Origin: a phage
Length of the DNA stretch: 64,000 bases
Strand: one strand, 5' to 3'
Sequence record: PQ400055.1
Each line of letters begins with the position of its first letter. Position 1 is the first letter of the stretch. Both the position numbers and the translations under genes were made by a program. Under the pieces are notes generated by a model. The model worked only from the letters and a program-made list of their open reading frames with translations. It did no database searches and was not told the DNA's origin. Shown in pieces: positions 5,451 to 8,189 of the stretch.

Positions 5451-6041
5451 TCAATAGCGTTTAGTTTTAAGAATGCCTTTACTCTTTAGATGGTTAGCCT
5501 TTTTTAGTACGTCATCAGCATAGCCTAACCCAGCTTTATAGTTCCATCCAGCATTGTAAGAAGCTAGCGCGAGTCGGATATTACCGTTTCTAACATCCAG
5601 CCAGTATGCTAACTCATCCATCGCGTAGAATGCAGAAACCTCGCGATTCATGATAAAGTTGATAGTCTGGCGATCACTCATTTTAACACCGCGCTTTGCA
5701 TTTTTCGCTTTCACCGTTTTAAGGTAATTTTGAAATAATCCATAAGCATGATGATTTTTCTTTGGTGCTAAGTTTGCACCCGCGCTTGATTCTTGCCATG
5801 CGATACCCGCCAGGATGTGACCTAAACCCTTTCCGTTATAGCGAATATTCGGATGGTCCTTTTTCAACTTACCGCTTTTCTCGAATTGTTCGCCGTATTG
5901 ATAGGCGAAATGTAAATTATCTAGTTGGTGTGCTGTAAAGTTGTCTATCGGCGCTTTTTTGATCGGTGCGCTAGTCGATGCGTGTGTAGCACCAACGGCT
6001 AGTGACAGACTCAATACTATCGCTTTTAGAACTTTTAACAT
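5451..6041 (-). CDS. periplasmic lytic transglycosylase (SLT domain)
   Basis: Signal peptide; SLT motifs ES (AWQESS), GLFQ, SYNAG in canonical order. Confidence 0.7.
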   Translation of the reverse strand: MLKVLKAIVLSLSLAVGATHASTSAPIKKAPIDNFTAHQLDNLHFAYQYGEQFEKSGKLKKDHPNIRYNGKGLGHILAGIAWQESSAGANLAPKKNHHAYGLFQNYLKTVKAKNAKRGVKMSDRQTINFIMNREVSAFYAMDELAYWLDVRNGNIRLALASYNAGWNYKAGLGYADDVLKKANHLKSKGILKTKRY

Positions 6042-6126
6042 TAATTTCTCCTGTTTGGCTTAACTTTCTGATTCCATAATATAGCCATATCACCAGAAAG
6101 TCAAGCATTATTTTAACCAATCTCCA

Positions 6127-6549
6127 TTATTGGTCAACTTTCAAAACAACAGCCGACATTTTACCCGCCAGTCGTTTTGGATTCTCTATAATCATTCGGC
6201 AGCATAGACCGTGATATGGCTTACCGTCTTCAATTAGGTCTACTGTCATCCCGATCCACATGTTACCGTCAGTAATTTCTAATCGATTAGGTCGGTCTTC
6301 CATTTTCAGGAAGTCGAAGATCTCCGGCAAACGAGTTTCTACCTTATTGAATAGTTCCATTGTCTTATGTTCATCGATATGACGATCGGTTAGACGGTCG
6401 ATCATATGCGGACTAAAGCGAATGAAAATATACTCACCGTAACCATTATTCAAGCACTTTTCTTTGATTTGTGCGTTAGTCTTACGCATTTCAGTTTCGA
6501 AGAATCTGCGCAGCTTGCTACGGCGAACATGTACGTTAATTGTTTCCAT
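6127..6549 (-). CDS. regB: RegB-like sequence-specific endoribonuclease
   Basis: METINVHVRRSKLRRFFE...RLEITDGNMW...CRMIIENPKRLAGK resembles T4 RegB as recalled; start taken at internal Met 6547-6549. Confidence 0.8.
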   Translation of the reverse strand: METINVHVRRSKLRRFFETEMRKTNAQIKEKCLNNGYGEYIFIRFSPHMIDRLTDRHIDEHKTMELFNKVETRLPEIFDFLKMEDRPNRLEITDGNMWIGMTVDLIEDGKPYHGLCCRMIIENPKRLAGKMSAVVLKVDQ

Positions 6550-6553
6550 TTTA

Positions 6554-6889
6554 TTATCCTTTCTTAAACAAATTGCGAAGCCAGTATACAAACGGGATTT
6601 CTTTAAACTTGAATTTCTCTATAGTTAATTCTTTAGTAGCAAGATGAATACCATAAGCATCATGTGTCACGATATGCCATTTTCTATAGTCCAAATGTGA
6701 ACAACCGTCTGGATCTAGGTTAATAAGAGTTTCTCGCTCACTAGGATTATTTTTCCACAATTTTGTAATAGGATCGCACATAATTCGACCTAGCGTACCA
6801 TGAATAATCTCACAACGGTAAAGTTTTCCAGCAGTGAGATAGGCGCACCCGTCATAGTCGGTATAAACAAACACTTCTTTAACACTCAT
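6554..6889 (-). CDS. hypothetical protein, member of tandem paralog trio (GCSHL..W motif)
   Basis: Start MSVKEV at 6887-6889 with AAGGAG SD; ORF-track N-terminal extension overlaps promoter. Confidence 0.5.
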   Translation of the reverse strand: MSVKEVFVYTDYDGCAYLTAGKLYRCEIIHGTLGRIMCDPITKLWKNNPSERETLINLDPDGCSHLDYRKWHIVTHDAYGIHLATKELTIEKFKFKEIPFVYWLRNLFKKG

Positions 6890-6917
6890 TTTAATACTCC
6901 TTTGTTTCGATGGGGGT

Positions 6918-6946
6918 ATATTACTACCCCCGTTTTGTTGTGTCAA
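6918..6946 (-). promoter_or_regulatory. sigma70-type early promoter (TTGACA-N17-TAATAT)
   Basis: Promoter-family copy between paralog genes. Confidence 0.5.
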
Positions 6947-7207
6947 CTACTTTTTCAAGATTTTTTTAATTGCGTTCCAAAGACCTTTATTCTCAGGTTG
7001 TTTTGGTTCTTCGATTAGTGTCCATGTTCGACCGTCTAAGTGTGCACAATTTTTAAGACAAATAAAAATCTGGTGTCCCTTATCATCACGGATATAACCA
7101 CTATTCGCAAATCTTTCATGTGGTGTATATTCATACAGTGTATTTGGTGTAATATACTTGCGGTTACTATAAGGTGTCATCACATACATCATGGTACTAA
7201 CTCCCAT
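6947..7207 (-). CDS. hypothetical protein, tandem paralog (C.HLDGR.W motif)
   Basis: Shares Y.(Y/F)TP...GYI(R/K)DD.G...C.HL.G..W pattern with neighbour. Confidence 0.5.
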   Translation of the reverse strand: MGVSTMMYVMTPYSNRKYITPNTLYEYTPHERFANSGYIRDDKGHQIFICLKNCAHLDGRTWTLIEEPKQPENKGLWNAIKKILKK

Positions 7208-7383
7208 TTATCACCGCGAAGATGAGAACATCCACCATCAAGAAGTATCGTAATACGATAACCTATATCATCTTTGATGTAACCGATTGTCGGTGGATTT
7301 TCGTCGTCTCGTGTCGGGGTAAAATCATACATCTTTCCGGGCGTAATATCTTGTCCTTTATTGCTATTGGTATAAACTTTCAT
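7189..7383 (-). CDS. hypothetical protein, tandem paralog (GCSHLRGDKW motif)
   Basis: Paralog of 6947-7207. Confidence 0.5.
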   Translation of the reverse strand: MKVYTNSNKGQDITPGKMYDFTPTRDDENPPTIGYIKDDIGYRITILLDGGCSHLRGDKWELVP

Positions 7384-7404
7384 TTTCTTAATCTCCTATA
7401 TTAA

Positions 7405-8103
7405 CTAACCACGGGTATAGTGTTCCAGAACAACTGTCAGATGAATATATTCTAATAGATCTTTCCAAAAGTCAACATCTGGTTCTTCCGGCATACCGTT
7501 TTTCTTTGCCTCTTCACGCGCGAGTTTAACACGCTCGTAGAGATCTTTCAATTCTTCCCGCACATTATCAAAGGTTCTTTCTCCTAACTTACACGCTAAA
7601 ATAGAAGAACGTCGCGCGAGCGGGAATTGTAAATCACCTGTCTGATAGATTTCAAGTAGCTGATAACCAACACGCAGAGCATGAGAAAGATCTTTCCAGT
7701 TACTGAAATACTTTTCAGATTTGGCTACCTGCTTTTTGAGATAGCCAGACAAACCCCACATACCAACATGATAGAATTTATCGCGATGTGTTCGGATGTA
7801 TTCCCATTCTCTGGAGGATTCAACCAACATGTTACTAGGCGCGTGCACCATGTCAATAGCGCCGATATCGCCTTTACATGCCAGGTTGATAAACCGTTTT
7901 AGACTGAACATATTAACGTCAATATCGTCTTTGGTGTTCTTGATACCTTGACCGCTAGTGCTTTGATCATAGTGTTCTTTCATCGATCCTAAGATAATTT
8001 CTTTCGCAGTCGGAACAAAGATACCACGATAATCTTTATCGGAGTTTTCAGTATCAAGGCAGTATAAGTGAGATCCGAAAACCATTTTAACCATTGTATG
8101 CAT
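7405..8103 (-). CDS. pol-beta-superfamily nucleotidyltransferase-fold protein
   Basis: N-terminal GS-x10-DxD motif (GSHLYCLDTENSDKD) followed by helical domain. Confidence 0.55.
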   Translation of the reverse strand: MHTMVKMVFGSHLYCLDTENSDKDYRGIFVPTAKEIILGSMKEHYDQSTSGQGIKNTKDDIDVNMFSLKRFINLACKGDIGAIDMVHAPSNMLVESSREWEYIRTHRDKFYHVGMWGLSGYLKKQVAKSEKYFSNWKDLSHALRVGYQLLEIYQTGDLQFPLARRSSILACKLGERTFDNVREELKDLYERVKLAREEAKKNGMPEEPDVDFWKDLLEYIHLTVVLEHYTRG

Positions 8104-8145
8104 AATTAAACCCTCAGTTGATTAAGAGATTGCATCATATCATCA

Positions 8146-8178
8146 TAAAACGAAAAAGCCAACCCTTTTCGGATTGGC
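8146..8178 (-). terminator. intrinsic terminator
   Basis: Hairpin gccaaccc-ttttc-ggattggc followed by U-run on minus strand. Confidence 0.6.
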
Positions 8179-8189
8179 TTGATGAAAAA

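Follow-up and report, generated by a model that had tools for sequence, protein, structure and literature searches.

Judged by its sequence, the gene at 7405-8103 on the minus strand of the window (the whole 64-kb stretch of DNA analyzed here) is the RB49-type, Krischvirus orthologue of T4 nrdC.11, and its product belongs to the RlaP branch of the Pol-beta nucleotidyltransferase superfamily. Our analysis directly supports this family membership, the identity of the catalytic residues, a predicted two-domain fold, purifying selection, and co-occurrence with the RNA repair genes pseT and rnlA. By homology with characterized RlaP enzymes, we hold with moderate confidence that the protein would add one or two nucleotides, without a template, to the 3' ends of broken RNA ahead of repair by PseT and RnlA. 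It is important to point out that the gene was already annotated (as nrdC.11 or as a nucleotidyltransferase), and that its family is already named and has recent biochemistry behind it. The founding paper on RlaP is reportedly that of Burroughs and Aravind from 2016. Modestly new are the insert-less architecture of the protein, its probable derived origin, a trio of small paralogs specific to this clade, and a G15C substitution in this isolate.

Identity and genomic context of the gene

The open reading frame is real; between its ATG and its stop codon it specifies a protein of 232 aa. An earlier account based on the DNA letters and their open reading frames (here, the sequence-only reading) had proposed, with no strand stated, a Pol-beta-superfamily nucleotidyltransferase with a GS-x10-DxD signature near its N terminus. 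That signature is exact: MHTMVKMVFGSHLYCLDTENSDKDY contains G10-S11-HLYCLDTENS-D22-K23-D24, in which ten residues separate the GS pair from the first aspartate of the motif at residues 10 to 24. Its codons lie at 8032-8076 on the minus strand, and it follows the nucleotidyltransferase pattern hG[GS]-x(9-13)-Dh[DE]h, supplying the first two metal-binding carboxylates. The superfamily call proved correct, and a chance match to the motif is excluded by two family-level hits. The protein matches Pfam PF10127, RlaP, titled "RNA repair pathway DNA polymerase beta family," scoring 48.3 bits where the cutoff is 23 (E = 1.4e-12), with residues 7-191 aligned to positions 24-198 of the 249-position model; this is its sole Pfam match even at E <= 10. 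It also matches phrog_388 ("nucleotidyltransferase") of the PHROGs collection at E = 1.4e-77.

The same reading recognized no T4 orthologue, and here it was wrong. The RefSeq record of RB49 annotates the gene as "nrdC.11, nucleotidyltransferase, similar to T4 tk.-11," and the nrdC.11 label also appears in the Phi1 and JSE records. By BLASTP, the T2 NrdC.11 homologue (337 aa) aligns with the window protein at E = 3e-48, with 45% identity over the alignable parts, and the T4/T2 proteins share with it the Pfam family, the PHROG, and the invariant G-S...D-x-D...D residues. A tblastn search placed homologues in 1574 phage records, among them those of Tequatrovirus and of Klebsiella, Aeromonas, Acinetobacter, and Mycobacterium phages, and 3120 relatives at E <= 1e-3 came from a HMMER scan run exhaustively over 1.84 billion cluster representatives. 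The neighborhood of the closest bacterial relative (P0080), examined for linkage to a ligase, showed a disrupted topoisomerase III gene beside it. T4 NrdC.11 itself has been placed in PF10127, in RlaP SSN cluster 5, with its function described as unknown (PMC12776372), and the T4 gene lies within a block whose deletion leaves the phage viable, making it dispensable in laboratory hosts (PMC9825161). The sequence-only reading had also named assignment to a housekeeping family with a known T4 orthologue as something that would count against it; the orthologue exists (NrdC.11), but the family is not a housekeeping one.

By megablast, positions 6000-9300 of the window are 99.9% identical to Escherichia phage kvi and 97% identical to RB49, Phi1, GEC-3S, and others, and all matches are to Krischvirus (Straboviridae). 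The gene order in RB49 is endolysin, vs.8, a small ORF, vs.6 (GrcA-like), nrdC.11, three hypothetical genes, regB, vs.1, vs, and tk.4 through tk. The T2/T4 copy of nrdC.11 lies beside nrdC.10 in the nrdC-mobD block, whereas in Krischvirus the gene has been relocated to the interval between vs.6 and regB, which we take to be the place of vs.3-vs.5 on the T4 gene map. In RB49 (NC_005066), nrdC is found at 39.6 kb and nrdC.11 at 52.8-53.5 kb.

Conserved residues and predicted fold

We aligned sets of 15 and 25 diverse homologues, plus a third set, spanning 26-57% identity and including one bacterial RlaP. Invariant residues were G10, S11, S21, D22, D24, P31, N56, D60, F71, G78, K137, H141, and R144. 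The motif residues on which the sequence-only reading had relied are thus conserved across homologues, with G10, S11, D22, D24, and D60 all invariant. D60 (codon 7924-7926, minus strand) lies in an NTKDDID motif at the start of strand 61-67 and is probably the third catalytic carboxylate; we infer its correspondence to the third Asp of PfRlaP.

An AlphaFold2 model of the protein is confident (pLDDT 92.6, pTM 0.88) and consists of an N-terminal beta-sheet nucleotidyltransferase core (strands 2-9, 23-30, 44-48, and 61-67), a helical C-terminal domain (helices within 116-201), and a long terminal helix (210-230). Compared by description, the order of these elements (nucleotidyltransferase domain, helical domain, terminal helix) is the same as in the PfRlaP crystal structure, where the terminal helix folds back against the nucleotidyltransferase domain (PMC12776372).

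The short RlaP is present in all 59 Krischvirus genomes at >=95% identity. The dN/dS among Krischvirus copies is 0.02-0.10, so the protein is under purifying selection.

A proposed role in RNA-end repair

Carruthers, Fatma and Huang (bioRxiv, December 2025) characterized two Pseudomonas RlaP enzymes, PfRlaP and PaRlaP (PMC12776372). In E. coli extracts, Pseudomonas RlaP labeled RNA but not DNA or protein, and the RNAs labeled were many, including rRNA-sized species. The product carries one or two NMPs on the RNA 3'-OH; any NTP, and also dATP, can serve as the donor, and Mn2+ or Co2+ is the preferred metal. The favored acceptor was the 5' half of a mimic of tRNA cleaved in the manner of colicin E5, and RlaP partly recovered the aminoacylation of a tRNA short of one anticodon-loop nucleotide. 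RlaP was proposed as the antidote to "smart" ribotoxins such as RloC, and its product fits the requirement of RnlA for a 3'-OH and a 5'-phosphate (PMC12776372). Additionally, the occurrence of RlaP among jumbo phages follows the pattern seen for RNA ligases (Iyer et al. 2021, PMC7824862). The published hypothesis agrees with the guess of the sequence-only reading that the enzyme modifies RNA or tRNA, conceivably in counter-defense (PMC12776372; PMC7824862).

The phage protein resembles PfRlaP and PaRlaP in its membership of PF10127, its predicted three-carboxylate active site and domain order, its similar size, and its lack of an insert. RB49 also encodes pseT (polynucleotide kinase/phosphatase), rnlA (RNA ligase 1), and a second small kinase-like ORF. 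The pseT-rnlA segment is found at >=95% identity in 59/59 Krischvirus records, kvi included, and the same 59 carry the short RlaP. In RB49, rnlA and pseT lie ~75 kb from nrdC.11, and no RNA ligase gene was found in the nrdC.11 block. Because pseT and rnlA are not adjacent to the gene, the ligase linkage behind the family name is absent here; operon linkage to a ligase has been reported for only "some" members of the family (PMC12776372), so such linkage is no strict hallmark of it. The Pseudomonas enzymes, in contrast to the phage gene, which is unlinked to any ligase, are encoded within RtcB-RtcA operons. As T4 NrdC.11 belongs to SSN cluster 5 and the assayed enzymes to cluster 1a, substrate details may differ between them.

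From this homology we infer what the phage enzyme acts on, how many nucleotides it adds, and which biological role it plays. D22, D24, and D60 would hold two metal ions, with Mn2+ preferred, and the enzyme would draw on any NTP to place one or two NMPs on an RNA 3'-OH in a template-free reaction, with the 5' half of a tRNA broken in its anticodon loop as the favored substrate. PseT would heal the RNA ends, RlaP would restore the nucleotide excised by a "smart" host anticodon nuclease of the RloC type, and RnlA would seal the tRNA break, the whole serving as a counter-defense RNA-repair accessory. Across the 64-kb window, ARAGORN detected neither tRNA nor tmRNA genes. As far as the window shows, then, a tRNA mended by the enzyme would come from the host.

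If this is true, NrdC.11 would complete the classic T4 PseT-RnlA pathway of tRNA repair by restoring nucleotides cut out by RloC-type anticodon nucleases, and it would explain how T-even-like phages escape a defense thought to be "repair-proof." This hypothesis was published by others, and the gene in the window brings no new evidence for it. What the gene offers is a naturally minimal, 232-aa phage RlaP that could be a handy construct for biochemistry and crystallography, together with a natural G15C variant. Four other readings, namely RegB-linked tailing of mRNA, decay of the gene to a remnant, HalB-like synthesis, and small-molecule modification, each draw weak support.

Small paralogs, regB, and a possible link to mRNA turnover

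The sequence-only reading had noted three small paralogs downstream of the gene and regB after them, and both observations hold. The paralogs share 36-42% pairwise identity and give reciprocal matches to phrog_6261 and phrog_15978, and regB matches PF10715 at E = 3.2e-48. All four genes are on the minus strand. Paralog 1 (7189-7383; 64 aa) belongs to phrog_6261, and paralog 2 (6947-7207; 86 aa, or 81 aa from the ATG used in GEC-3S) to phrog_15978. Paralog 3 (6554-6946) is 130 aa long from a TTG, or 111 aa from the ATG at 6889 used in RB49, and consists of a phrog_6261 core with a C-terminal extension. The regB endoribonuclease gene occupies 6127-6591, and its annotated start is probably the ATG at 6549 (141 aa).

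The core of the small paralogs has a conserved G-C-[AS]-H-L...W pattern. A profile search of 5.8 billion proteins returned 22 clusters of this family, nearly all from the same clade and with no domains; searches of PADLOC and NCBIfam gave far-sub-threshold FosA noise only, and Pfam gave no domain. We considered whether the paralogs correspond to T4 vs.3, vs.4, and vs.5 and reject this at the sensitivity used, as tblastn with the 86-aa protein matches only the 59 Krischvirus records and the family comprises only those 22 clusters. The small paralogs always lie between RlaP and regB; RB49-like phages carry three of them, and more distant relatives two (L005:5278-5752; L007:3989-4449). In GEC-3S, the ATG of paralog 2 and the stop codon of paralog 1 share a 4-nt overlap (ATGA), pointing to translational coupling of the two. 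The Shine-Dalgarno sequence of paralog 1, AGGAG (within 7384-7404, minus strand), contains the RegB target GGAG, whereas that of nrdC.11, GAGGG (8111-8115, minus strand; 7 nt 5' of the ATG, as read from the sequence), does not. It is possible that RegB sensitivity differs within the block.

This neighborhood invites the idea that RlaP would tail the 3' ends of cleaved or dephosphorylated RNA pieces for phage-directed mRNA turnover after RegB cleavage, with the short tail engaging host 3'-5' exonucleases and leading to decay rather than repair. RlaP, the small paralogs, and regB do form a co-oriented, tightly packed block in Krischvirus and in metagenomic relatives, and the synteny of RlaP with regB holds for short and long RlaP alike. 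Such a role would also suit an enzyme that uses all four NTPs and labels many E. coli RNAs, rRNA-sized ones among them (PMC12776372). However, the T4/T2 orthologue sits away from regB, in the nrdC-mobD block, so the adjacency of RlaP and regB is a lineage-specific synteny. The GEC-3S annotation also places a separate promoter just 5' of paralog 3 and regB, and an addition of only 1-2 nt would make a poor toe-hold for an exonuclease (PMC12776372). We therefore regard mRNA tailing as unlikely and prefer nucleotide restoration ahead of PseT and RnlA.

A compact form of NrdC.11

The T-even NrdC.11 proteins are 336-337 aa long and carry an alpha/beta insert of ~105 aa that the window protein does not have. 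By BLASTP and alignment, an insert of ~100 aa is present in most strabovirid NrdC.11 proteins and absent from the Krischvirus protein. The BLASTP gap, the alignments, and AlphaFold2 models of short and long forms place the junction at residues ~131-136 (7696-7713, minus strand). In long forms, the ~90-105-aa alpha/beta insert lies in a loop of the helical domain; its counterpart in the window protein is the loop between helices 116-131 and 136-155. The insert gave no recognizable structural match; it might conceivably bind RNA.

Long forms dominate the best 150 cluster representatives, among which only 4 are one-piece matches of 231-258 aa (one 94-aa fragment aside). The few other short forms include P0002, P0103, P0116, and P0193; of these, the last three are independent, and P0002 (57% identity) combines the short form with a Krischvirus-like synteny. 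The metagenomic contigs L007 and L008 follow the gene order of Krischvirus (M15 endolysin, vs.8, GrcA, RlaP, two small paralogs, RegB, vs.1, vs, and tk), and at this syntenic locus their RlaP is a 327-aa long form, 43-47% identical to the window protein (L007:3004-3987). We considered the short form as ancestral and reject this, given the long forms in L007/L008 and the dominance of long forms among the best 150 representatives. With a long form still at the syntenic locus of L007 and L008, the simplest explanation of the compact Krischvirus RlaP is that the RB49-like lineage underwent an internal deletion, making the short form the derived one. Both the Pfam model and a bacterial RlaP of 247 aa align colinearly with the short form, and the loss of the insert brings the Krischvirus protein back to the domain layout of bacterial RlaP.

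There is also one difference within the gene from kvi: codon 15 (8059-8061, minus strand) is TGC (Cys) in the window and GGC (Gly) in kvi, RB49, GEC-3S, and the metagenomic contig L009. G15 is part of the GSxxxG portion of the nucleotidyltransferase motif and is near-invariant, the window allele being the lone exception among the aligned homologues, and a search of a 15-billion-protein collection gave no match to the exact window protein with Cys15. G15C may represent strain variation, an error in sequencing, or a mutation that mildly disables the enzyme, and the Cys15 allele might be impaired.

These features raise the question of whether the ORF is a passenger, a decayed remnant in which the internal deletion, and in this isolate G15C, inactivated the enzyme. 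The protein lacks ~105 aa relative to almost all close relatives (the 4 short one-piece matches among the best 150 cluster representatives aside), and its allele here substitutes a near-invariant glycine of the motif. Yet the short form keeps every invariant residue and its colinearity with the Pfam model and the 247-aa bacterial enzyme, and it folds confidently in prediction. It is conserved in 59/59 Krischvirus genomes at >=95% identity with a dN/dS of 0.02-0.10, other short forms (P0103, P0116, P0193) are independent, and the G15C point concerns one allele only. Decay thus seems quite unlikely, and a working, compact RlaP remains our preferred reading.

Likeness to other nucleotidyltransferases

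The sequence-only reading had suggested a search of the MNT, CCA-adding, cGAS/DncV-like, and KNTase families. None of these gave a sequence match, and RlaP was the only family found. The NTP_transf_2, Polbeta, MntA, and KNTase_C profiles do not match the window protein; sub-threshold hits occur in relatives only (MntA, E = 0.059, to T2 NrdC.11; Polbeta, E = 0.87, to L007). The head-domain profiles of CCA-adding enzymes and class II poly(A) polymerases gave no Pfam match at E <= 10. Neither Pfam nor PADLOC gave a match to CD-NTase (SMODS) or cGAS/DncV-like enzymes, and there is no CD-NTase among the fold matches listed. PADLOC and NCBIfam returned nothing for the nucleotidyltransferase, and sequence searches of the PDB with the protein and with a 25-sequence profile gave no meaningful match in a copy that apparently does not include PfRlaP.

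The best Foldseek matches were to kanamycin nucleotidyltransferase ANT(4') (E = 1.7e-5), AAD(9), LinB, and Tam41, with TM-scores of 0.26-0.46 and ~12% identity; they reflect a common scaffold, not family membership. ANT(4') (PDB 1kny/6un8) has the best E-value and shares with the window protein a two-domain layout, a Pol-beta nucleotidyltransferase domain followed by a HEPN-like helical bundle, but identity is ~12%, the TM-score is ~0.37, the substrates of ANT(4')-type enzymes are small molecules, and sequence gives no match at the family level.

Likeness to Hailong HalB (PDB 9dbh) is one of fold. HalB is a component of a bacterial defense system and is processive and tyrosine-primed, unlike the reported activity of RlaP; the phage gene gave no HalB or Hailong match in PADLOC and no PDB sequence match, and no HalA-like transmembrane partner is adjacent to it. 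On this likeness one could imagine a HalB-like, template-independent synthase of (deoxy)oligonucleotides, possibly protein-primed, whose product would act as a decoy or substitute for the "all-clear" signal of host immunity, an example being the oligodeoxyadenylate that holds the HalA channel of Hailong shut. We think this very unlikely. A broader proposal would have the compact RlaP, the small paralogs, and RegB form one module for RNA-end remodeling or counter-defense, in which the paralogs serve as specificity or regulatory subunits replacing the insert, or would have the enzyme make HalB-like decoy-signal oligonucleotides; we give it very little credence. If either version were true, phage RlaP would have a role beyond "put one nucleotide back" repair.

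Finally, modification of a metabolite or a host antiphage compound by an aminoglycoside- or lincosamide-ANT-like enzyme, suggested by those same top Foldseek matches, is most improbable given TM-scores of just 0.26-0.46 at ~12% identity, no match to any Pfam, NCBIfam, or resistance family of this kind, and the finding that characterized RlaP labeled RNA alone among E. coli RNA, DNA, and protein (PMC12776372).

Upstream spacer and neighboring genes

The spacer between vs.6 and nrdC.11 (8104-8189) is 86 bp long in the window and holds a putative terminator/promoter pair. An intrinsic-terminator-like hairpin (8156-8180, minus strand; 10-bp stem, 5-nt loop, T-run) lies just past the stop codon of the GrcA-like vs.6 gene, and the GEC-3S record has an annotated terminator at the equivalent site. 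A consensus scan found a candidate sigma-70-like promoter, TTGGCT-17-TATGAT, preceded by TG (8134-8162, minus strand), which overlaps the 3' arm of the terminator and may be where the nrdC.11 transcription unit begins. Given this upstream pair and the promoter annotated in GEC-3S before paralog 3 and regB, nrdC.11 may be transcribed early as one short unit with paralogs 1 and 2, a suggestion resting on consensus matches.

A homing endonuclease gene of the HNH/NUMOD4 kind (~197 aa) separates the GrcA-like gene from RlaP in two metagenomic relatives (L005:3951-4547; L009:2478-3071), and the vs.6-nrdC.11 spacer appears to be a homing-endonuclease insertion site. The gene on the far side of the spacer (8190-8606, minus strand) encodes a protein of 138 aa that ends in a glycyl-radical domain (PF01228, E = 2e-16). 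The RB49 record labels it vs.6, and that of kvi "autonomous glycyl radical cofactor"; it is a GrcA/YfiD-like spare part of the phage, presumably for pyruvate formate-lyase or NrdD damaged by oxygen. The endolysin gene at 9290-9679 (minus strand) encodes a Peptidase_M15_4 protein of the L-Ala-D-Glu peptidase type, not a T4 e-type lysozyme, and such an endolysin is a known feature of RB49-like phages.
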